Program-made: the position numbers and the translations under genes
The notes under the pieces: generated by a model
What the model saw: only the letters and a program-made list of their open reading frames with translations
What the model was told of the DNA's origin: nothing
Databases searched by the model: none
In this document: positions 3,464 to 27,152 of the stretch, piece by piece
How the letters are laid out: every line of letters begins with the position of its first letter
How positions within the stretch are numbered: the first letter of the stretch is position 1
Source of the DNA: a virus
IMG/VR virus record: IMGVR_UViG_3300042868_007692
Coordinates: 1 to 64,000 of that record
DNA: 64,000 bases
Reading direction: 5' to 3' (one strand)

Positions 3464-4474
3464 ATGAGTAAATATAGATTTAAAACTGAAGAAGAGTTTA
3501 AAAAAGAAGGACTTTGGGATAAAAATTGCCCTCAAAGATGGACTATCTCAGGAAACATGAACAAATATCTTGGTCAAGATATACCTAAAGAATATAATAG
3601 GTATTGTGATGAAGGAAAATCATTTAGCTATAATGGCTGGTCTTTTAGTAGTCAAGATTATATATTAAAAGAATCTGTCTCTCAATACACCAAAGGTAAA
3701 TGGTATAATTGTAAAAGATGGAATTCTAAAAATGATTTTGTTAGACTAACAAAAGTTGTTGATGGCCAAGCTTATTTTACAGAATGTCTTGATAAAGGAA
3801 AGTATAGCAGTGGAAAAGAAAACTGGTGGATATTTGATAATACTGAATACCCATTATTTGAAGCTGATATGTCTATTGTTAGTCCTCTTCTTCCTGATGG
3901 ACATCCTGATAAAATATTTACTAAAGAGTTTTCTTTTATTCTTCCTGAAAAATGGTGTATTAAACTTACTGGAGAGAATATTGAAACATTAGGTAAATGG
4001 AGAACTTCAGGTCCTATAACAGCTGAAAGATATATAACAGAAAGTTGGTATCTACATACACCTAAACATGGAGCTAGAGGTTATAATGAACCTAAAAAAG
4101 ATCCTGATTACACAGAGATTACATTTGAACAGTTTAAACAGTATGTATTAACACCTTCTAATGATGCAAAGATTGTTCCTGAAAAAGAAAATTATGAAGG
4201 TAGAACTATTAGAGCTTTAGTAAAAAGTCCTCAAGGTACACAGGTACAAATAGGAGAAACAATTTGTATTATTCAACTTCTTCATAGTAGCTATAAATTA
4301 GGTATGAATTCTTCAGGTACATCAGGTCTGTATATTGATTATCCTCTTAATCTTAATCAATGGGAATTAGTTTCTGAAGATGCATATCCAAGTATTAAAA
4401 AAGAAACATTTATAGATAATGTGCAGTCTGTAGATGTAATATTACGCACAAAAAAGAAAACAATTAAATTTTAA
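3464..4474 (+). CDS. Hypothetical multi-module protein
   Basis: 336 aa, several short Trp/Tyr-rich modules. Confidence 0.8.
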   Translation: MSKYRFKTEEEFKKEGLWDKNCPQRWTISGNMNKYLGQDIPKEYNRYCDEGKSFSYNGWSFSSQDYILKESVSQYTKGKWYNCKRWNSKNDFVRLTKVVDGQAYFTECLDKGKYSSGKENWWIFDNTEYPLFEADMSIVSPLLPDGHPDKIFTKEFSFILPEKWCIKLTGENIETLGKWRTSGPITAERYITESWYLHTPKHGARGYNEPKKDPDYTEITFEQFKQYVLTPSNDAKIVPEKENYEGRTIRALVKSPQGTQVQIGETICIIQLLHSSYKLGMNSSGTSGLYIDYPLNLNQWELVSEDAYPSIKKETFIDNVQSVDVILRTKKKTIKF

Positions 4475-4485
4475 TCCTTAAAAAC

Positions 4486-4839
4486 ATGAACAAAATGAAA
4501 AGTTTCGTAAAAGAAGTAGTAGCTATTATTAGTGGTGACAATGCTGAAGCAACAGGTCAAAAAATCTTAAGACAAGCAGATAGTGCTTTTAAAACACAAA
4601 TTGCTTCTCTTTCAGGTAGAACAATATCTTTAGAAGATAATGTTGAAGATGCAAAAGAAAGTTTAAGATTGGCAAAACTTAACAATGGTAAAGTTATGCC
4701 TACAGAGTTAGACAGAAACTGTTTTATAGAAGAGTTGTTAAATGCTAAAAACAAAGTTACTGATTGTGAAGAAGCTCTTGAAGTACATTTAGCAAAAATT
4801 GCTTTCTTACAAGAAATGCATGATTCTTTAGACAAGTAA
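4486..4839 (+). CDS. Hypothetical helical protein
   Basis: 117 aa, heptad-like pattern. Confidence 0.8.
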   Translation: MNKMKSFVKEVVAIISGDNAEATGQKILRQADSAFKTQIASLSGRTISLEDNVEDAKESLRLAKLNNGKVMPTELDRNCFIEELLNAKNKVTDCEEALEVHLAKIAFLQEMHDSLDK

Positions 4840-4846
4840 TAGAATT

Positions 4847-4916
4847 AAGGCATGTGATAAAATAGTTATATAACAAGGTTAATTAACTTATTTGGGAAAA
4901 TTTCACATGCCTTTTT
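4847..4916 (+). terminator. Long hairpin or terminator
   Basis: AAGGCATGTGA...TCACATGCCTT followed by a T run. Confidence 0.5.
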
Positions 4917-5011
4917 AAAACAAGGCTAAACATTGAACCTTTGTAAATAAAAGACAATATACTAGTGTAAGTACAATAGTGTGCACATTATTTACATAAA
5001 GATACTAATCC

Positions 5012-5335
5012 TAAATTGACAAGATATTAATGAGTACATATTTAATAATCAAAATCCTATTTCAATAGGTTAGTTATTAAATACCCCTTACTGAGGTGGT
5101 CTACTGCTTTTAAGGCATAGATATTAATGGAGTAATCCTAGAACGTGAGTTGCCTTGAGAAAGCAATGTCCTATAAAAAGAGAGTCATCAGGATCTCTAC
5201 TCACGTAATGAATTCTCAGCAAGTAGTGATGGTCAGAAAGTAACATCTAAAATATTAAAGACCTAATCCTACGTGACCCTACTCTTATTGCTGCTCTATT
5301 GAAACAGAATAAGAAAGAGGGTGCTAAATTATATA
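5012..5335 (+). ncRNA. Candidate structured ncRNA upstream of tmRNA
   Basis: No ORF; nested helices ACGTGAGT(5143-5150)/ACTCACGT(5199-5206), ACCCT/AGGGT, TCTTATT/AATAAGA, GGTC/GACC. Confidence 0.45.
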
Positions 5336-5339
5336 TTAT

Positions 5340-5785
5340 GGGGTAGCCGGGTATTGACCTGCCATAGTAGATTTAAAGATTCAGCCAGAGAGATAACTGT
5401 AAACTAAGATGAACATAATAAATGACAATCATTTAGAAAATGCTCAAGTACAAGCTAATATGACAGTTGTACACAATATCTTAAATGGTATTGAAGAATT
5501 GTCTTCTGCTTCAAAAGAAGTGGAGTTGGCTGTGGCTGCCTAAGCCAAAGATTAGGACCATAACTTAGGTTAAAGTTAATACTCCCTTTTGCTAGTTTGG
5601 GATAAAACTAGATGGTGGAGGCTTGCTGTTTACAGTTGGCCCTTTTCTTGCATTGCCAAAGCAGAAGTAAAAGATACATTGGCAAAACTTGAATGATACT
5701 TCAAGTATAAAACTGTATCAAAAGCTGTAATAAATCTTTATTTTGAGATGACCAGGTAACGTGGGTTCAACTCCCACCTACTCCA
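5340..5785 (+). ncRNA. ssrA: tmRNA (transfer-messenger RNA)
   Basis: Acceptor GGGGTAG/CTACTCC with G3.U pair and discriminator A; T-arm GTGGG-TTCAACT-CCCAC; helix 2 ACCTG/CAGGT and AAAGATT/AATCTTT; tag frame 5424-5543 ending LAVAA-TAA; CCA not encoded. Confidence 0.95.
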
Positions 5786-5789
5786 CTTA

Positions 5790-5884
5790 GGGAAATTCAT
5801 TTTGGAATTATGAGGGAAGTTCTCATAATCATAGGTCAAGATCCTTGAAAAATAGGTACAAGGGTTCAAACCCCTTATTTCCCT
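5790..5884 (+). tRNA. Non-canonical tRNA-like element
   Basis: 7-bp acceptor GGGAAAT/ATTTCCC stacked on T-arm AAGGG-TTCAAAC-CCCTT; no canonical D or anticodon arms. Confidence 0.5.
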
Positions 5885-6156
5885 CTACAAACATTGTCAA
5901 CACGAGGTCCTTCATTCCATTGTATCCTAAAACAATAAAACTCTTGAGTTTAAATATTGTAAGTGAGCTGGTCACAGACAAGCTGTAGTACAGAGGTTTG
6001 GGTCAGAGTAACTAACAAGTGTTTGGCTTTGCCATGATCTTAAGAATATCTCTCTGACTTTTAAACTAAAAAGGCAAAACTTAATTTAAAACAAATCTCT
6101 ATATATGGAATAGGTTATTGCCTTCCTATAAAGTATGTAGAACAACAAAACACATT

Positions 6157-16621: not shown

Positions 16622-19342
16622 ATGGCTAAAATTTTGGTGTTAGCACCGTCAGGTTTCGGTAAGTCCACCAGTATAGGACAGATTCCAGAATTAGGAATTA
16701 AAGGGTTAACTCCTGAAGAGACTTTTCTTATTTCAGTAACTTCTAAACCTCTTCCATTTAAAGGGAGTGGTGCAGCATATCCAATATGCCAACCTGGAGA
16801 TTTAAAATCAGGTAGAAGAATTATTACTGATGATGCAAAAGCTATATCAGAAATCTTCTTAGCTTTAGTTGCAAGTCCTTACAAGAATATTGTATGGGAT
16901 GACAGTAACTATGTTATGCAGAATTGGTATATGGCTAATGCTTTAGCTAAAGGTTGGGATAGAATGGTGTCCTCTTTCTAAGAAATTAGAAAGTAATTAA
17001 ATTGGGCAAAAACGGTGAAAAGATTATAGATTTTTCATAAAAAATGTTTATATTTGTACAAAATAAAATTGTATGAAAATAAATAATTATAATAAAGACT
17101 TCTTTAAAGAAATTGACACAGAACTCAAGGCTTACATTTTAGGTTATATTGTAGCAGATGGTTGTATAACTATTGAACACAGACCTTTAAAACCCAATAA
17201 TCCTATAAAAAGAGTTCAGTTTCAACCTTCTATAGATGATTTACAAGTAATTACTTTGATCAGAGATGTTATTGCACCTACAAATAAGTTGACTATTGTC
17301 ACTAATAAAAGAGAAGGTAACAGAAAAGATACAGTAAAACTTAGACTTGCGTGTACTGAAATAGTTAAAGACTTAATGACCCTTTACAATGTAAAACCTA
17401 GAAAAACTTATGATACAACTTTTAGATTTCCTAATATTAGAGAAGATTTAAAAAGACATTTTATAAGAGGTTTTATAGATGGAGATGGTAGTATAGGTAC
17501 AAGACATTTTTCTATGATTTGCAACTCAAAATTATTTGCAGAAGATATTTTAAAAGAATTTTTAAAAGCTATACCTAATTTGAAATACTATATTTATGAT
17601 GAAAATAGAAGTCAAACTACTTATTATTCTTTACACTTTAGTGTAAATAAAAAATCAAGAGTTGATTTATTTAATTTTATCTACAAAAACTGTAATTTCA
17701 GGTTAAATAGAAAGTATGAAAAAGCTCTCAATGCCGTGTTAAACAGTAACAGTAAAGAGTTATTGTCAATGTAACGCATAGGAACTGAAACTCTTAATAA
17801 GAGAATATAATGTTCCCAAGAGTGTCCAATACCTGACCAAATAAAGTTGAAGGTAAAAATGTATGCTGACCTTACAGGAGATATAAGTACTGTAAGAACT
17901 AGAGGATAAAAAGCCTTTAGGATAACAAGGGTGGCCCCTAAACAAATTGGTTTTATGATGGGTAGAATCTTTGATGCTATTGAGAAGTTAGATGCTGCAG
18001 GTAAAAATGTAATCATCTTAGCTCATGGTGACAGTGTTCCTGGACCTGATGGTAGAATCTATATGAAGTACAAATCTACAGGTAAGATGGTTGCTTAACA
18101 TCAGCCATTATCTATCTAACTGCTGGGATACCCTAAAGCTCTATAAGCTACAACATAATTTGAAAAAGTAAGTGTGAATGCTAAAAATTATAGAGATGGC
18201 TAATGGGCAATCAGCAGCCAAGACCCTAAGACTTAAGATGTTATGGGTAAGGTTCACAGACTATCCTCTGTTGTGGAGGAGTACAGAGAAAAGTGATTAT
18301 TTTCTTTGGAAATGGTAGACATAAGTTTTGCATATAACCAGATGTTTTGTATATTTGTACTATGAAAACAGTGAAAATATATAAGCTTATAGACCCTACT
18401 TCATTAGAAGTAAGGTATGTAGGCAAGACAGAAAAAACACTAAAGCATAGACTATCTATGCATGTTACTACTTCAATCAAAAACAAAAATAAAACTCATA
18501 AAGAAGCTTGGATAACCGGGTTATCTTTTATGGGTTTTAGACCCTTAATTGAACTTATAGAGGAAGTTAATTTTGAAGATTGGCAAGAAAAAGAGATTTA
18601 TTGGATAACTCAATTTGAAAACTTAACTAACACTTGTAGTGGAGGCATAGGAGGAACAGGTAGAGTATATTCAGAATCAGAAAGATTGCAAAGGTCAATT
18701 ACTATGAAAAAGCTTATTGGTGAAGGTAAAATAGATTATACAGAAAGGGCACTAAAAATTTCTCAATCTCATAAAGGTAAAATATTATCTGAAATGACTA
18801 AAGAAAAATTAAGACAGTGCAATTTAGGTAAAAAACAATCTAGGGAACAAAAATTAAAAACAGCTAGAAAAGTAATAAGAATTGATAAAGAAAATAACAA
18901 AGTAGTGTTTGACAGTCTTGCAGAAGCAAGTATAGCTTTAGGTGCAAATACACAAAAACAAATAAGTATTTTTAGAGGAAATATTTGTACTGTGTGTAAA
19001 GGCAATTTAAAAAGCTATAAAGGTTATAAATGGCAATATTATGAAGATATAGTCGATTCCTTATAGAAATATAAGGGTATGTTGTGTTAAGGATAATCTC
19101 TTAACTGAATAGCAACTTACAAACAAAGTGATGAGTATTTGACTGTAGAGGGTAAAGTAGACGTAACTCTTATTGGTATTAGTAGATATGATGCTACTGA
19201 TAAAAAAGCAGTAAAAGAGTTCTTAACCAATGAAAATGAGCAATATTCTTCAGCTAAATCTCCTATTGGAATGTTTGATAAACAATTCATTCCTAATGAT
19301 TTAGGACATGTAGTAGAAAAAATTGCTGAGTATTATGGCTAG
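16622..19342 (+). CDS. AAA-family (Sak4-like) P-loop ATPase, spliced: exons 16622-16960, 17934-18091, 19129-19342; 236 aa
   Basis: Walker A APSGFGKST, Walker B IVWDD; junctions KGWD|APKQIG and STGKMV|DEYLTVEG; IILAH; AKSPIGMF. Confidence 0.9.
16961..17933 (+). mobile_element. Group I intron 1 of the AAA ATPase
   Basis: P1 GGGAT/GTCCT with U.G; P7 GCATA/TATGC; TTGGGCA/TGTCCAA pairing; terminal G 17933; removal restores the frame. Confidence 0.88.
17073..17774 (+). CDS. Intron-encoded double-motif LAGLIDADG endonuclease
   Basis: AYILGYIVADGCI and HFIRGFIDGDGSI; TATATTTG at 17049-17056. Confidence 0.92.
   Translation: MKINNYNKDFFKEIDTELKAYILGYIVADGCITIEHRPLKPNNPIKRVQFQPSIDDLQVITLIRDVIAPTNKLTIVTNKREGNRKDTVKLRLACTEIVKDLMTLYNVKPRKTYDTTFRFPNIREDLKRHFIRGFIDGDGSIGTRHFSMICNSKLFAEDILKEFLKAIPNLKYYIYDENRSQTTYYSLHFSVNKKSRVDLFNFIYKNCNFRLNRKYEKALNAVLNSNSKELLSM
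18327..18357 (+). promoter_or_regulatory. Bacteroidetes sigma70-type promoter for the intron endonuclease
   Basis: TTTG-N19-TATATTTG, ATG 4 nt downstream. Confidence 0.75.
18362..19066 (+). CDS. Intron-encoded GIY-YIG homing endonuclease (NUMOD3/NUMOD1-like tail)
   Basis: KIYKLIDP...RYVGKT, LTN..GG, KISQSHKG, YKGYKWQY; paralog of 12652..13206. Confidence 0.9.
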   Translation: MKTVKIYKLIDPTSLEVRYVGKTEKTLKHRLSMHVTTSIKNKNKTHKEAWITGLSFMGFRPLIELIEEVNFEDWQEKEIYWITQFENLTNTCSGGIGGTGRVYSESERLQRSITMKKLIGEGKIDYTERALKISQSHKGKILSEMTKEKLRQCNLGKKQSREQKLKTARKVIRIDKENNKVVFDSLAEASIALGANTQKQISIFRGNICTVCKGNLKSYKGYKWQYYEDIVDSL

Positions 19343-22357: not shown

Positions 22358-23107
22358 ATGAGTGAAGTACAAGCTCCGGTTACTACTGAAAGAGAAGTAA
22401 CAATTTATGCCACTAGAGGTGGTAACATGAAAAAAATCATGACATCTGTTAAAACTTGGGGAGAATTACAACCCTTAGTTAGAGGAGAAGGTTTTGATTT
22501 AGGTTCATTATTAGCTGCTGAGAACATCAACAAGACAGACCTTGTTAATGATTTAGCAATATTACCTGAAGGAAACTTCAGATTATTCTTAAGACCAAAA
22601 CAAACTAAGTCTGGTGCAACTCCTGATAGAAAAGAATGTTTTGCTATTATCAAAGCTCATTTAGCTGTTTACCCTAATGATAAACAAAAGTTTATCATTG
22701 ATGGTAAAAACATGACTCAGTTATCTACTCCTGTAGTACAGGATTTAGTGGCTAAGTATTGTAAAGGTACTGATATTGCATCTGCTGTTGCTGAAGCTCC
22801 AGTTAAAGAGAAAGCTCCAAAAGCTGAAGTTGTAAAAAAAGTAGAAGATGTTGTAGAGTCTGTAAAAGAATCTAAAACTGAAAATACTCCAGCTACACCT
22901 CTTACAGATGCTGTGAGAGTTGAAGAAGCTTTAAAACTTATTGCTCCTTTATCAGGTTATGACTCTTATGCTAAAGTAGAAAAGCATTTGAATAGACTTT
23001 CTGATGAAATAGCTATTGCAAATGCTCCTGCTCCAGAAATGAAAGAAGAAACTGAAGAAGAGGCTTTAGCTAGAGAAGCTAGAGAACTGTCTGCAGGTTA
23101 CAGATAA
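22358..23107 (+). CDS. Putative ubiquitin-like (beta-grasp) protein precursor with C-terminal extension
   Basis: Residues ~12-86: strand-strand-helix (TWGEL) ... final strand FRLFLRP then KQTKSG(86); first gene of the E2/JAB/E1 cluster. Confidence 0.65.
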   Translation: MSEVQAPVTTEREVTIYATRGGNMKKIMTSVKTWGELQPLVRGEGFDLGSLLAAENINKTDLVNDLAILPEGNFRLFLRPKQTKSGATPDRKECFAIIKAHLAVYPNDKQKFIIDGKNMTQLSTPVVQDLVAKYCKGTDIASAVAEAPVKEKAPKAEVVKKVEDVVESVKESKTENTPATPLTDAVRVEEALKLIAPLSGYDSYAKVEKHLNRLSDEIAIANAPAPEMKEETEEEALAREARELSAGYR

Positions 23108-23114
23108 TATTAAT

Positions 23115-23150
23115 AAAGGGCTTATGTAATGTAAGCCCTTTTAATTTTTT
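23115..23150 (+). terminator. Intrinsic terminator between the Ubl and E2-like genes
   Basis: AAAGGGCTTAT-gtaat-GTAAGCCCTTT plus T-rich tail. Confidence 0.8.
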
Positions 23151-23155
23151 ATATT

Positions 23156-24349
23156 ATGTATATAGATGATCATCAATTACCATTTTATGAAGAAGTAGGT
23201 CAAATACTTCATAATGCTTTATTAATGAATACTCATAAAAACAAAGAATTTTTACAGTTTTTGTTTGATAAAGGTAAACTACAATTACATGGCTACCCTA
23301 ATCCTAATCAAAAAGCTATCAATGAATTTTTTAGACTTTTAGATTTATTTGAAGCTAAATACAAAAGTTTTTATGACCTAGGTTTTCATACTAAAGATGG
23401 ATACTTACAACCTTACTTTAAAGTCTTATATCCCAAGTTTACTATTGAAAATAGTGCAGGAGAAAGCCATCAAATAAGAGATTTAATAGTAGTTCATAGA
23501 ATAGCTTATAATACAAATGAAGAAGGTCATATCTATACTAGAAAACCTTTAGGAGGCAGACTAAGTAAATTTAAACTAGAAGTAGTAGGAGGTTATCAAC
23601 AAAGTCATTTAGGTTCTCATTCAAATTGGAAAAATGACCCTTTTTATACTTCAGAATTTTGTGTAGGTGGAGATACTGATGTAAGTAGAATGATAGCTGA
23701 ATTTAAAGTAGAGATGGATTGGGACAGATATGAATTATACTTATTTTGTGTTGATTCTATGGTTACTTGGGAGTCTTTAGAAGGTGTTCCTTATACAAAA
23801 ATAAGAAATATTAAGAATGCTCTTAATAACCAGGTTACTTCTGTAGATGCATCTTATGTAAGAAGAGTTGTTGATAAAATTACAAAAAATGAAATTGCTT
23901 TAGATTTAGACTTTTACATAGAGAATGGTTTATACAGAATTAGACCTAATGAAAAAGCTAATGAGTTTATTAAAAATATAGTTTTACAAACTCTTACTTT
24001 TGAGCAATACAAAGAAATCTTAGTTAGTAGAGTACCTAATACTTTCAATGAATTTCTTCAAATGAAAGCTGAGCAAGATGCTCAACAAAACTATAAAATA
24101 AGTTATCCTACTAGATACACTATTTTTAGAGGCAAAAAAGTCTTTGCCAAAATACTTAAAGAAGACACAAGAAATGAACCTGTTGTCTCTTTAGAAAACC
24201 TTATTGTTTATCCTAATTTTTTAAAAGATGTCCTTAGTCAACTTGAGTCAAGAATCTATAGCAAAGCAGTTACCCAGAGTGGAATTAAAATCTACAATTC
24301 CCTTGGTAATGCCAATAGAAGTATTACATCAGATTCAGTATCTGTGTAA
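23156..24349 (+). CDS. Putative prokaryotic E2-like (UBC-fold) protein
   Basis: YQQSHL...EFC(169)VG resembles the E2 HPN...ICL active-site flap; followed by a helix and WESLEGVPY; context supports it. Confidence 0.55.
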   Translation: MYIDDHQLPFYEEVGQILHNALLMNTHKNKEFLQFLFDKGKLQLHGYPNPNQKAINEFFRLLDLFEAKYKSFYDLGFHTKDGYLQPYFKVLYPKFTIENSAGESHQIRDLIVVHRIAYNTNEEGHIYTRKPLGGRLSKFKLEVVGGYQQSHLGSHSNWKNDPFYTSEFCVGGDTDVSRMIAEFKVEMDWDRYELYLFCVDSMVTWESLEGVPYTKIRNIKNALNNQVTSVDASYVRRVVDKITKNEIALDLDFYIENGLYRIRPNEKANEFIKNIVLQTLTFEQYKEILVSRVPNTFNEFLQMKAEQDAQQNYKISYPTRYTIFRGKKVFAKILKEDTRNEPVVSLENLIVYPNFLKDVLSQLESRIYSKAVTQSGIKIYNSLGNANRSITSDSVSV

Positions 24350-25475
24350 AAATATACCAAAAGTAGAGTGGTCAGGTGCTCTATTTTATACTACAGAAGG
24401 TAGTATTGAAAAACCTGGAACATTCAAAATTACTTTAAAGACAATTCTTCCATTAGATATGGGTAGTTCAGCTTATACTGAATACAATCTTGATGAAAGA
24501 TTTATGGATTTTATTGAAGAAGATTTTGAAGAAAGATGTACTTGGAAATTAGGTCATATTCATAGTCATAATGTAATGAGTGTTTTCTTCTCAGGTACAG
24601 ATATGGCAGAGCTTAATGACAATGCTCCAGCACATAATTTTTATCTTTCTTTGATAGTAAATAACTATATGGACTTTATTGCCAAAGTTGCTTTTATTGG
24701 AGAAGCTAAAAAAGATATTAAACAGGTTCCTTATACAGCTAAGAATGCTGAAGGCCATAATTATATCATTGAAAGACAAGACTTTGAAGTTAAGACTAAA
24801 AAGTTGTTTATTTATGATTGTGACATTGATACTCCTAAGAATACAATCTTAGTGACAGATCAATTTTCTGCTCAAGTAGCTAAAATTATGGAGCCTAAAC
24901 CTGTAAAAAAAGTAGAATCTAAATGGCCTGCTACTACTACTACTACTACTACAGGAAAGGGATGGCAAAGAAAGGATAATACCAGGCAATTCAAATCACA
25001 AGAAGACAGGGAAATGGAAAGTTGGAACAAAAGCTTTCAGAAAGAAACTAAAAAACCTTTCAATAATTGGGAAGATTGGGAATTACCTATTTCTACTTTA
25101 CTGGCTGAAGATTTAGAAGAAGAAGATTTAAAAGCAATGTATATTTATAATTTTGCTAAAGAATTATTTGATTTTACAGGAGGTTCTACACAAGAAGAAA
25201 CTTTAGAAGATGTTTTAGATATGTTAGTAGAGTTTAACTTAACTCCTTCTGAATTAGCTAAATCCGTAATTACAGAGTATGCTAAAGATTTTAATAAACA
25301 TTTTCCTAAAGCTAATGCTACTGAATTTGTTCAGTATACCCATGAAACTTTAGATTTATTAGAAGATGTGAAACAACTTTATCCTGAAATTGGATTAACT
25401 ATTAGAACTATTAGTTCTATGATTACTAAATTTATAGAAAATGAGACAGACAAGAGACACAACCCAGCAGTCTAG
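24228..25475 (+). CDS. JAB/JAMM (MPN+) metalloprotease with acidic C-terminal domain
   Basis: KVEWSG catalytic Glu and HSHNVMSVFFSGTD = HxHx7Sx2D; start uncertain (24228 or 24309). Confidence 0.9.
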   Translation: MSLVNLSQESIAKQLPRVELKSTIPLVMPIEVLHQIQYLCKNIPKVEWSGALFYTTEGSIEKPGTFKITLKTILPLDMGSSAYTEYNLDERFMDFIEEDFEERCTWKLGHIHSHNVMSVFFSGTDMAELNDNAPAHNFYLSLIVNNYMDFIAKVAFIGEAKKDIKQVPYTAKNAEGHNYIIERQDFEVKTKKLFIYDCDIDTPKNTILVTDQFSAQVAKIMEPKPVKKVESKWPATTTTTTTGKGWQRKDNTRQFKSQEDREMESWNKSFQKETKKPFNNWEDWELPISTLLAEDLEEEDLKAMYIYNFAKELFDFTGGSTQEETLEDVLDMLVEFNLTPSELAKSVITEYAKDFNKHFPKANATEFVQYTHETLDLLEDVKQLYPEIGLTIRTISSMITKFIENETDKRHNPAV

Positions 25476-26142
25476 ATTTAAAGATGCTCCATGGTTTCCT
25501 AAAAACAATGAAGTGTGCATGGTAGGTGGAGCAGGTGGTATTGGTTCTTGGTTATGTTATTTCTTAACTAAGATTGGTTTTAGAGTTAACCTCTATGACT
25601 TTGATACTGTAGAAGACCATAATCTAGGTGGTCAATTATTTATGCAATCTGACTTAGGTCAACCTAAAGTAACAGCAGTAGCAAGAGTTGTAAACTCTTT
25701 TTGTAATACTCCTATAGCTACATTCAATGAAAGAATTGATATGAATACAATGACACATTACTTTATGTTTTCTGCTTTTGATAATATGGAAGCAAGAAAT
25801 GCATTGTTTCATGTCTGGAAAAAGTCCTGGGGCTCAGTTCCTTTAGCGGTGACTCCAATCTTCATAGATGGTAGATTAGAGATAGAGCAATTACAGATAT
25901 TTTGTGTTACTCCAGAGAATGCTGACAGGTATGAAAGAGACCATTTGTTTCATGATTCAGTAGTAGAAGAAGCACCTTGTACTATGAAACAAAGTTCTCA
26001 TACAGCAGCTATGATAGGAACTCTTATGACTTCCTATTTTACTAATCATATTGCTAACATTTATAGTGGAGAGACTATCAGAGAAGTCCCTTTCTACTAT
26101 GAATTTGTAGTTCCTATGAACTACTCAGCTTCTGAACTATGA
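25441..26142 (+). CDS. ThiF/MoeB-family E1-like adenylyltransferase
   Basis: VGGAGGIGS, YDFDTVEDHNLGGQ, K, AFDNMEAR, IDGR, candidate thioester Cys in APC(180)T; no Zn-binding CxxC pairs. Confidence 0.92.
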   Translation: MRQTRDTTQQSRFKDAPWFPKNNEVCMVGGAGGIGSWLCYFLTKIGFRVNLYDFDTVEDHNLGGQLFMQSDLGQPKVTAVARVVNSFCNTPIATFNERIDMNTMTHYFMFSAFDNMEARNALFHVWKKSWGSVPLAVTPIFIDGRLEIEQLQIFCVTPENADRYERDHLFHDSVVEEAPCTMKQSSHTAAMIGTLMTSYFTNHIANIYSGETIREVPFYYEFVVPMNYSASEL

Positions 26143-27152
26143 GAGTAATATCCTCTACATTAGGAAGCTTAACCAATGATCCTTTTAAAATTACTGTATT
26201 AGCAGCTAATACCTACATTCCTATCTATGCTTTTCACACATATTATCAGGAAGAAGGTGTTAAATTCTATAAAAGACCTTCTTTAGAGAAAGGTACTCTT
26301 AGAAAACCTAATACTTTAAAGCACATAAAGGATGCTCTAGAAATGGCTATTGCCCCAAGAAGAATTCTTATAGGTAATAAAAATTATTACTTTATAAAAG
26401 GTGCAATGTACACTGAGGATGGGAATCCTCTTATGGTGTTAGGTATGTCTAAAGAAGCTTTTAAAAATCCTGATATTCCTAATTTCTCTGATAATTATGG
26501 AGAATCAGCTAGTCTTTTTGACTATAAAAATTTTGTTATGTTTTACTCCACATCTTTCTTTACTGAGCCTAGTCTTGCTCCTTTAAACAGAAGATTTCAA
26601 AAAGAAATATTAATGTCTTGCTATGAAAAAGGTATAGAGGTAAGAGTGATTACCTCATCAGAAATTGAAAAGAATACCTTTGCAAACATTTTTGAAATCC
26701 CTAAAGCTAACTCTGTTAGTCAATTAGAGGAGTACATGAACAAAGTACTACCAACAATTTTATACACAAAAGAAGAGGACACTTTTGTATTTGAAGAGTT
26801 GACAGTACCTGAAGTTGTTCAAAACCATGAATTATCTGTGGAAGAAGAAGCTCTACTATTTGATTCTGAAACTAGTCAGGAGTTGCCTGGAGTTAATCCT
26901 ACAACTTTTGATATTACTCTTAATACAGAAGAAGTAGTTGAATTACTTCCTATTTTTAGAGACCCTGAAATAGAAGAATTAGAAAGAGAAGCTGCAACTT
27001 GGGATTCTGCCCATACAGAACCTGCTTATGTAGCTCCTGAGTATCCTATAGTTCCAGAAGAAAGTATTATTCTAACACCTATAGGAGAAAGGGTAACTAA
27101 TGTTTCTTTTAGAACCACTAGACCAATAGAGCTTATTGATGACACAGAATAA
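26139..27152 (+). CDS. Hypothetical protein coupled to E1, with acidic disordered C-terminus
   Basis: 337 aa, ATGA overlap with the ThiF gene. Confidence 0.8.
   Translation: MRVISSTLGSLTNDPFKITVLAANTYIPIYAFHTYYQEEGVKFYKRPSLEKGTLRKPNTLKHIKDALEMAIAPRRILIGNKNYYFIKGAMYTEDGNPLMVLGMSKEAFKNPDIPNFSDNYGESASLFDYKNFVMFYSTSFFTEPSLAPLNRRFQKEILMSCYEKGIEVRVITSSEIEKNTFANIFEIPKANSVSQLEEYMNKVLPTILYTKEEDTFVFEELTVPEVVQNHELSVEEEALLFDSETSQELPGVNPTTFDITLNTEEVVELLPIFRDPEIEELEREAATWDSAHTEPAYVAPEYPIVPEESIILTPIGERVTNVSFRTTRPIELIDDTE

Follow-up and report, generated by a model that had tools for sequence, protein, structure and literature searches.

The first 64,000 nucleotides of the IMG/VR virus record IMGVR_UViG_3300042868_007692 (hereafter the window) carry, at positions 22358-26142 of the plus strand, four consecutive open reading frames (ORFs) that encode a precursor of a ubiquitin-like protein (Ubl, hereafter also the tag), an E2-like protein, a JAB/JAMM protease and a ThiF-type E1. 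The best explanation for this cassette is a phage module for ubiquitin-like activation and conjugation, which lies in the replication block and is found across a large part of the crAss-like phages. A probability of about 0.6 is assigned to protein conjugation through the cysteine of the E2-like protein, and confidence is higher for the processing and activation of the tag. The window derives from a freshwater crAss-like phage and belongs to a linear record of 73,164 bases with a CheckV completeness of ~77%, and its GC content is ~30%. An original prediction, made from the sequence alone, had read the four genes as a conjugation operon, and this reading is supported in part: the gene set, the folds and the conservation speak for it, while the E2 assignment is moderate and the surroundings of C180 of the E1 look structural. 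The four ORFs and every motif quoted for them were found in the ORF list and its translations, with the components and their key residues located as follows.

22358..22615, plus strand: Ubl beta-grasp domain, amino acids 1-86 of the 249-amino-acid precursor, ending in K84-S85-G86 (nucleotides 22607-22615).
22616..23107, plus strand: C-terminal extension of the Ubl precursor, amino acids 87-249, with helices, a K/A/E/P-rich linker and a conserved end.
23156..24349, plus strand: E2-like protein of 397 amino acids, with a probable UBC/UEV/RWD-type core at about amino acids 48-222 (nucleotides 23297-23821) and a C-terminal alpha/beta half.
23603..23611 and 23660..23662, plus strand: candidate active-site residues of the E2-like protein, S150-H151-L152 and C169, respectively.
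24228..25475, plus strand: JAB/JAMM metalloprotease of 415 amino acids, with the JAMM domain at about amino acids 20-160 and a helical C-terminal half.
24366..24368 and 24561..24602, plus strand: JAMM metal-site residues, E47 and H112-x-H114-x7-S122-x2-D125, respectively.
25441..26142, plus strand: minimal ThiF-type E1 of 233 amino acids with a single adenylation domain and the nucleotide loop at amino acids 28-36 (nucleotides 25522-25548).
25978..25980, plus strand: C180 of the E1, within EEAPCTMK.

The first 86 residues of the precursor, for which a beta-grasp fold had been proposed, were modelled by AlphaFold2 with the bbabb arrangement of that fold: strands 12-18, 24-29, 51-55 and 74-80 are disposed around a helix at 34-43 (predicted local distance difference test, pLDDT, ~88-94), the tail at 81-90 being of lower confidence. 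Comparison of the model with 48,161 chains in VIA-align gave FAT10 as the best match (Z 9.2, 78 residues aligned, root-mean-square deviation (rmsd) 2.6), with 33 chains at Z of at least 8 and beta-grasp proteins in all of the top 50 rows, ubiquitin, SUMO, ISG15, UBX and MoaD included, which bears out the proposed fold. Foldseek likewise aligned ~78 columns with chains of UBX, SUMO, ISG15 and ubiquitin (TMt 0.6-0.69, rmsd 2.3-2.7), with no chain at E≤0.001, which the small size of the domain would lead one to expect, and a tag profile searched against the PDB gave noise only (E≥0.098).

The tag domain ends in F74-RLFLRPKQTKSG86 and is followed by A87. In an alignment of 18 sequences with identities down to 28%, P80, K84, S85 and G86 are invariant (18/18), and a wider search retrieved 609 proteins at E≤0.001 among 675 candidates; when the best 120 of these 609 relatives were aligned, RPKQTKSG was unchanged in 120/120. 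K-S-G also stands at the same place in crAss001 gp79 and Fpv1 gp58, so that the invariance expected of this motif was confirmed. The glycine is thus invariant yet internal, being preceded by a serine and followed, in the best 120 relatives, by a variable residue (A, V, S, T, L or I). Within the same 120 relatives, mean identity to the window protein is 0.89 for amino acids 1-86 versus 0.60 for amino acids 87-249, and the extension ranges from 64 to 173 amino acids. The model of the extension shows helices at 91-134 and 184-221 with pLDDT ~90 and a linker at 141-178 with pLDDT below 50-56, and its terminus is conserved as ...REARE(L/M)..GY(R); no family matched it in Pfam, PADLOC, NCBIfam or a PDB profile search. 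At locus L019 (4000-4557), a lysine/alanine/proline-rich stretch (KAAKPIKKAPTKAEKK...) replaces the helical domain, and in its composition it is reminiscent of basic nucleic-acid-binding tails.

The protease gene had been described as encoding an intact JAMM enzyme, and this description stands. The complete metal site is present in the window protein (E47, H112-S-H114-x7-S122-x2-D125), and E47, W48, S49, G50, H112, S113, H114, S122, G123 and D125 are invariant in 14/14 JAB sequences with identities down to 20%. Library matches appear weak but consistent: Pfam Prok-JAB gives 0.087 for the window protein (13.2 bits versus a cut-off of 25), 4.9e-4 for crAss001 gp77 and 4.1e-5 for L027, and the PADLOC JAB model gives 0.013 for the window protein. 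When the JAB profile was searched against the PDB, the best relevant match was an Rpn11-like protein at an E of only 0.17.

In several relatives the JAB gene has a peculiar organization. In Fpv1 (L001, NC_031914.1) and several of its sister phages it is in two pieces of 117 and 314 amino acids (3722-6014), split just ahead of the H-x-H motif and with an endonuclease gene on the opposite strand between them, and this split accounts for the two PHROGs families to which one protein is assigned. A group I intron is matched at the split (4039-4284; Rfam 43.4 bits, E 2.6e-9, under the gathering score of 50). FpV4 and Fpv3 carry the gene in one piece.

The E1 displays G28-G-A-G-G-I-G-S36, D53/D55, D114-N-x3-R119 and C180, that is, a ThiF-type Rossmann domain with its nucleotide loop and catalytic aspartate, and it is recognized by Pfam ThiF well over the cut-off (8.8e-16, 58.2 bits versus 28.1). 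G30, G32, G35, S36, D53, D55, N61, K76, D114 and R145 are invariant in 17/17 sequences. The profile built from these 17 sequences retrieved 67 PDB sequences at E≤0.001, headed by UBA5 (1.7e-14) and continuing with UBA6, UBA1, MccB, ThiF, MoeB, TcdA, NAE, SAE, Cap2 and BubCD, with alignments confined to the nucleotide-binding half and ending at residue 125; true Ubl-activating E1s are thus the best matches of the profile. Neither a rhodanese domain, nor CxxC pairs, nor an inserted cysteine domain is present, and the E1s of E2/JAB neighbourhoods described in the available part of PMC1779556 also have no rhodanese domain. A cysteine at or beside position 180 is kept in 29/29 of the rows that cover that stretch (30 rows aligned).

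The 397-residue protein contains the motifs Y147-Q-Q-S150-H151-L152 and F168-C169-V-G171. Its model (pLDDT 84.7, predicted template modelling score 0.73) consists of a helix at 52-72, a four-strand meander at 73-139, a loop with S-H-L and C169, and helices at 175-185 and 189-203, an order of elements that in the model is that of the UBC fold. C169 is placed between the strand at 137-139 and the helix at 175-185, so that C169 and H151 would both lie in the loop that leads from the beta-meander into the following helix, the place of the cysteine and histidine in E2s. Among all representatives, VIA-align ranked the Tsg101 UEV domain first (Z 6.0, 129 residues aligned, rmsd 3.6), most of the top 50 rows were UBC, UEV or RWD folds, and chain D of a Citrobacter Bub complex (9eav_D), its E2, was among the matches at Z 4.2. 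A rescan of the best 1000 chains of Foldseek raised Tsg101 to Z 6.3 (129/140 residues), with 50/50 rows from the UBC/UEV/RWD superfamily. Foldseek itself gave nothing at E≤0.001, UEV, E2 and RWD chains being scattered through its list, and the ESM Atlas gave no usable match. Since Z values below 8 may, by the calibration of VIA-align itself, reflect a common arrangement, a UBC/UEV/RWD-type fold is rated as moderately supported by the model. No informative match was obtained for the C-terminal half (~225-397).

Conservation delineates a candidate active site in this protein. When 1.84 billion representatives were searched with a profile, 3002 clusters matched at E≤0.001, of which 2333 also passed E≤1e-10 and 380 E≤1e-30, and an alignment was made of the window protein with 141 diverse representatives of at least 340 amino acids. 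S150, H151, C169, E206, S207 and P212 are invariant in 142/142 sequences, F168 and G171 are unchanged in 141/142, and position 149 is His in 131 and Gln in 10, the window among them; this conservation yields the signature Y-x-(H/Q)-S-H-L ... F-C-x-G ... W-E-S-x-E-G-x-P. Relatives are 39-73% identical to the window protein, apart from one near-identical match at 96%; the tag domain by far exceeds its surroundings in conservation. What emerges is a protein family of very large size, so far without annotation, whose candidate active site is clear, and a catalytic role is suggested for C169. More generally, the cassette genes are conserved as protein down to 20-30% identity, and the motifs exceed chance, since none of the named residues varies in the alignments of relatives.

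From the gene set and the conserved residues we infer cleavage, thioester formation and conjugation, which could proceed as follows. The JAMM protease would cut the 249-residue precursor after G86, releasing the 86-residue tag; the other product, a C-terminal fragment of 163 residues, may itself be functional. G86 would be adenylated by the minimal ThiF-type E1, presumably a homodimer, and the tag would then move to C169 of the E2-like protein, with H151, S150 and E206/S207 as candidate helper residues. The E2-like protein would hand it on to lysines of phage or host proteins, target choice possibly lying with its C-terminal half and perhaps with the gene after the E1, and the JAMM protease may also undo the tagging.

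The cassette was then followed among relatives. The closest cultured ones are the Flavobacterium psychrophilum phages Fpv1, FpV4 and kin (E1 59% identical), and farther ones include crAss001, the PhiCrAssBcn phages, DAC15/17 and uncultured gut crAss-like phages (E1 32-40% identical). An E1 match was found in 79 phage records; 74 of these are crAss-type, and the same 74 contain the JAB gene. The labels in these records are 'thiamine biosynthesis protein' for the E1, 'metalloprotease domain containing protein' or hypothetical for the JAB protein, and hypothetical for the other two; the earlier remark that ThiF and metalloprotease genes have been annotated singly in crAss-like phages agrees with what is seen in crAss001 (gp77 = metalloprotease) and the Fpv phages. 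Twenty-six crAss-type loci were compared (Fpv1, crAss001 and 24 IMG/VR contigs), two of which begin at the E1 with no upstream DNA, and several of the other 24 duplicate one another. In these 24 loci, phmmer detected JAB and E1 in 24, the tag in 23 and the E2-like protein in 22, and profiles added the crAss001 gp79 tag (1e-14) and the E2-like proteins crAss001 gp78 (1.9e-12) and L018 (1.6e-32). All four genes in the same order are therefore present in 24/24, in line with the co-conservation that had been anticipated. Megablast matched the cassette to no phage record, and Foldseek against viral models matched uncharacterised crAss-like proteins only (5 at E≤0.001).

More telling than this co-occurrence are two groups of loci, L027-L032 and L033/L036. 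In the former, JAB and E1 are only 20-24% identical to those of the window. Three IMG/VR contigs of this group (L027 1604-5480, L029 3787-7759 and L030 890-4938) show the order small protein, large protein, JAB and E1, the small protein having 79 amino acids and ending in K-Q-E-S-G plus nine residues, and the large one having 691-731 amino acids with Y-H-P-H-I-D-x4-A-C-x-G. Their backbone differs, with a P-loop protein and a primase-polymerase-like protein downstream. In the IMG/VR contigs L033 (4759-8719) and L036 (5264-9110), a 410-455-amino-acid protein with N-P-H-L-x4-C-x-G is followed by a JAMM protein and a ThiF-type E1 (Pfam 1.5e-20), and directly afterwards by a reverse transcriptase (RVT_1, 1.1e-13). 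Comparison by hhalign found no link between the tag and the 79-residue protein of the L027 group, whose profile matched only ribosomal L24 in the PDB (0.057); given these negative profile comparisons, the L027-L030 and L033/L036 cassettes parallel that of the window by gene order and motif only.

Several observations weigh against a conjugation module. The E2 call is made at the fold level, with Z of at most 6.3, and UEV domains, which are catalytically dead, head its structural matches. The E2-like protein has no matches in Pfam, PADLOC or NCBIfam (0 families), its profile has 0 matches in the PDB at E≤10, and hhalign with two other groups of phage E2-like proteins gave probabilities of 0.1 and 0.6. 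Canonical E2s carry an HPN motif ~10 residues before the catalytic cysteine; (H/Q)149-S150-H151-L152 is found instead, with 18 residues from His to Cys. Of the E2-like assignment, the UBC/UEV-type model has moderate support and C169 is invariant; no sequence link to an E2 family was found. Regarding the E1, the nucleotide-binding motifs and the predicted conservation of C180 are retained, but the protein has neither a catalytic-cysteine domain nor a long crossover loop, one or the other of which carries the catalytic cysteine in canonical Ubl E1s. C180, its sole conserved cysteine, stands in a P-C-T context ~6 residues before the next helix-like stretch, a setting closer in appearance to the structural PxCT motif of E1s and to the first zinc ligand of MoeB/ThiF than to a catalytic loop. 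In view of this context, the tag may pass directly from the adenylate to the cysteine of the E2-like protein, or C180 may be the E1 cysteine. The tag ends in S-G, not G-G, and no relative was found with the tag but without the extension, the 609 matches spanning 136-436 amino acids; hence no natural 'mature' gene backs the cleavage. Two shorter matches (122 and 78 amino acids), considered as standalone mature tags, both look truncated or frameshifted. Lastly, the whole replication block is syntenic and some loci are duplicates, which makes the crAss-type co-occurrence weak evidence by itself.

These observations invite other explanations of the same genes. Tagging may proceed without an E2, as in the archaeal SAMP/UbaA/JAMM system, the conjugating components being the tag, the E1 and the JAB protein, and the 397-residue protein being a UEV-like, non-catalytic tag-binding adaptor or a target receptor. 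The UEV (Tsg101 Z 6.0-6.3, Vps23) and RWD domains at the head of its structural matches and its missing HPN motif would suit this role, as would a weak match of the E1 to the NCBIfam SAMP-activating E1 (1.9e-6, far below the cut-off). We consider it improbable nonetheless, because C169, H151, S150, E206 and S207 are invariant in 142/142 sequences, a pattern typical of an active site and not of a binding surface, and UEV/RWD domains, as treated in the available part of PMC1779556, are without the cysteine.

Slightly less credible again is a sulfur-carrier or other C-terminal chemistry, in which a ThiS/MoaD-like carrier, trimmed by JAB and activated by the E1, would be consumed by the 397-residue protein, its thiocarboxylate or adenylate feeding the modification of a small molecule, tRNA or DNA. 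No rhodanese, cysteine desulfurase or other sulfur donor was seen in the E1 or the neighbouring genes scanned. ThiF models are the best NCBIfam matches of the E1 (2.5e-14), but all ThiF/MoeB scores are far below their cut-offs and its profile matches UBA5, UBA6 and UBA1 first; the fold matches of the tag include MoaD chains (Z 7.9-8.3), but ubiquitin, FAT10, SUMO and UBX rank higher. The cassette lies among DNA-metabolism genes, and sulfur-assimilation neighbourhoods with JAB, ThiS/MoaD and E1 are described in the available part of PMC1779556; against this, the adjoining protein has, in its model, a UBC-type fold. Comparably doubtful is a function limited to processing, although it is compatible with a conjugation module. 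The beta-grasp domain would here be a removable N-terminal chaperone or timer, as in ubiquitin-ribosomal protein fusions or lambda TAPI, and the fragment freed by JAB the real effector, replication-associated or DNA-binding, with the E1 and the 397-residue protein serving another purpose. The 64-173-residue extension kept by every relative, with its folded helices and conserved ...REARE.GY end, would be accommodated, as would the lysine/alanine-rich extension of L019, and phage Ubl and JAB pairs without E1/E2 are known in tail assembly (PMC1779556, available part). It leaves unexplained, however, both the constant presence of an intact E1 and a Cys-bearing UBC-like protein and the much higher conservation of the tag relative to the extension.

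Activation and conjugation of a phage tag therefore remain the preferred reading. Recent work has shown that bacteria use ubiquitin-like conjugation against phages (Bil, CBASS Cap2 and probably Bub), and to our knowledge such a tagging kit has so far been studied only in cells and in bacterial anti-phage defence, so a complete-looking phage-borne kit would open the other side of the host-phage conflict. The literature consulted contained no description of a ubiquitin-like system in crAss-like phages, though subscription papers or genomics supplements may annotate these genes. That a large part of the crAss-like phages, including crAss001 and the Flavobacterium Fpv phages, run their own Ubl conjugation during infection, tagging replication-associated or host proteins, is a tentative proposal with the odds a little against it, and host takeover, counter-defence or replisome control, as originally suggested, is a guess as to its role. 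If true, it would be the first offensive virus-encoded bacterial counterpart of the Bil, Bub and CBASS conjugation systems, and would bring a new, very large E2 family (>3000 clusters) together with a fusion-precursor tag that has a functional second half. The biological interest of the cassette resides in its carrier, its breadth and its testability: the kit is conserved among replication genes from freshwater Flavobacterium phages to the gut phage crAss001, and a testable function is offered for four 'hypothetical' or misnamed genes, with cultured phage-host pairs in existence.

The arrangement of the genes comprises overlaps, a spacer with a hairpin and a possible additional member, the last two being located as follows.

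23115..23151, plus strand: terminator-like hairpin with a 12-bp stem followed by a T run, within the 48-nucleotide spacer between the Ubl and E2-like genes.
26139..27152, plus strand: possible fifth member of the cassette, 337 amino acids with an acidic C-terminal tail, its start overlapping the E1 stop by 4 nucleotides.

Counting from the first start codon of each ORF, and hence from predicted starts, the E2-like, JAB and E1 genes overlap in series, as had been noted, by 122 and then 35 nucleotides, and the E1 overlaps the next gene by 4; the Ubl and E2-like genes do not overlap and are separated by the spacer. The E2-like/JAB overlap (24228-24349) is near-constant in relatives, at 122 nucleotides in most, 134 in L019 and 62 in crAss001 as annotated, and both of its reading frames are conserved as protein.

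The hairpin has its stem at 23115-23141 with the T run after it, and constitutes the strongest terminator-like site on the plus strand between 19 and 29 kb, a region with 10 such sites versus 4.0 ± 2.1 in shuffles. It folds with a z of -3.16 relative to shuffles, and a hairpin is found at the equivalent position in 21/22 of the spacers folded, one further locus having been left out for its overlapping ORF calls. Stem sequences differ among the window group, Fpv1, crAss001, L015, L018, L019, L026, L027 and L029, and the spacers of all tested lineages (9/9) fold better than shuffles (z -3.0 to -6.3, at most 1/200 shuffles as good). The loci of the L027 group also have a hairpin after their small gene. 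Rfam gave no match at gathering score within 19-29 kb of the window. The simplest reading of the hairpin would be partial termination, by which tag transcripts would exceed those of the enzymes in amount.

At the E1 end, an abutting or overlapping gene is present in the window, in the 16 loci that match the profile of the 337-residue protein strongly, and in L002, L018, L019-L021, L022 and L026. The 337-residue protein evolves much faster than its neighbours, its close-relative profile reaching L019-L021 at 2e-5 but not crAss001, and it has no family match in Pfam, PADLOC or NCBIfam and no Atlas match. By eye, a short G-x-G-x2-L-D-like motif recurs in the gene after the E1. This gene may encode a fifth component, for example a target receptor.

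The cassette sits within a block of replication and recombination genes. Upstream neighbours include a DnaG-type primase (phrog_12622, 3.3e-91) and a gene matching one annotated in Fpv1 as uracil-DNA glycosylase, and downstream neighbours include members of the RusA-like resolvase and PD-(D/E)XK exonuclease VIII families, among others. PHROG assigns all four cassette proteins to families whose function is unknown. A 239-residue ORF (18347-19066, plus strand), standing by itself ahead of the replication genes, has an N-terminal I-Y-K-L-I-D ... Y-V-G-K-T pattern that resembles a GIY-YIG homing endonuclease. The GC and AT skews flip sign at ~38 kb of the window, consistent with a genome of two arms transcribed divergently or convergently, an arrangement known from other crAss-like phages.

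Near-identical DNA occurs in lake-water, wastewater and other aquatic metagenome runs of several studies, one of which is marked as a possible origin of the window, and in one run of another study 6/8 contig pieces are at least 99% identical to the window. Contigs from three RNA-library runs are ~90-93% identical to parts of the window and span the tag, JAB and E1 genes; as they may stem from DNA in the library, they are evidence of neither transcription nor termination. One of them ends 14 nucleotides before the tag stop codon, to which no meaning is attached, a contig of another study continuing past it.

None of the membership tests for Bil, Bub, CBASS and PRTRC placed the cassette within these systems, and it therefore appears to work like them and to belong to none. 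In Bil, the JAB peptidase pre-processes the Ubl and exposes its C-terminal Gly (10.1101/2023.09.26.559546, available part). Bil (BilA Ubl, BilB E2, BilC JAB, BilD E1) and the cassette share four separate genes and an E2 or E2-like protein with a cysteine, and both are without an E3, the E2 being thought to select targets in Bil (PMC11601596, available part). On the contrary, the cassette is phage-borne and lies in replication genes, whereas Bil is a bacterial defence locus; its E1 has 233 residues and one adenylation domain, whereas BilD is described in the same source as IAD-AAD-CYS, and the PADLOC BilD model reaches only 15.4 bits on it (E 0.0014, 76 residues). No PADLOC Bil model matches the tag or the E2-like protein, and the 163-residue extension of the tag and the extra half of the 397-residue E2-like protein also set the cassette apart.

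With type II CBASS, the likeness lies in the E1, whose best PADLOC matches are 20 Cap2-type 'E1-E2' models (best 8.6e-8) and whose profile matches Cap2 chains (5.9e-8), and in the presence of a JAB partner, which is Cap3 in CBASS. The cassette differs in having a dedicated Ubl and no E2-E1 fusion, the Cap2 matches covering only the nucleotide-binding part of the E1, and no CD-NTase was seen among the neighbours scanned. The account of Iyer, Burroughs and Aravind (2006; PMC1779556, available part) covers mobile-element operons that combine Ubl, JAB, E1 and E2 (types 6a-6e) and, in phages, the TAPI/TAPK pair. According to that source, PRTRC/type 6d combines a small Ubl with a conserved C-terminal Gly, JAB, an E1-like and a Cys-bearing E2-like protein and a fast-diverging extra protein on mobile DNA, much as here. 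PRTRC_ThiF is the second-best NCBIfam match of the E1, but with 44 bits versus a cut-off of 144.75, and no other NCBIfam PRTRC model matches any of the 5 proteins scanned. The E2 of type 6d has its conserved His downstream of the Cys, whereas that of the cassette is upstream, and its JAB has an N-terminal domain with conserved Arg/Trp, none of which was seen here (PMC1779556, available part); nor does the cassette contain ParB. TAPI of lambda/T1 is likewise a phage beta-grasp protein with a conserved Gly, a C-terminal domain and a predicted JAB cut, but TAPI and TAPK (JAB plus NlpC/P60) belong to the tail cluster, with an assembly role and no E1/E2 in the account given there (PMC1779556, available part).

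Type I Bub (BubAB precursor, BubCD JAB-E1 and BubE) resembles the cassette in that the Ubl forms the front of a longer protein, a fusion precursor that in Bub is cut by the JAB peptidase, and in that the E1 is without a catalytic-cysteine domain (PMC11601596, available part); the E1 profile also matches BubCD (2.1e-7). Bub uses Ser/Tyr oxyesters and has no catalytic cysteine, whereas C169 of the cassette is invariant, as is S150. In addition, the Bub extension is the E2 itself and its JAB is fused to the E1, which is not so in the cassette, and BubE (DUF6527) was not found in the 11 neighbouring proteins scanned. Nonetheless, it is type I Bub that the fusion-precursor logic and the cysteine-poor minimal E1 of the cassette recall.

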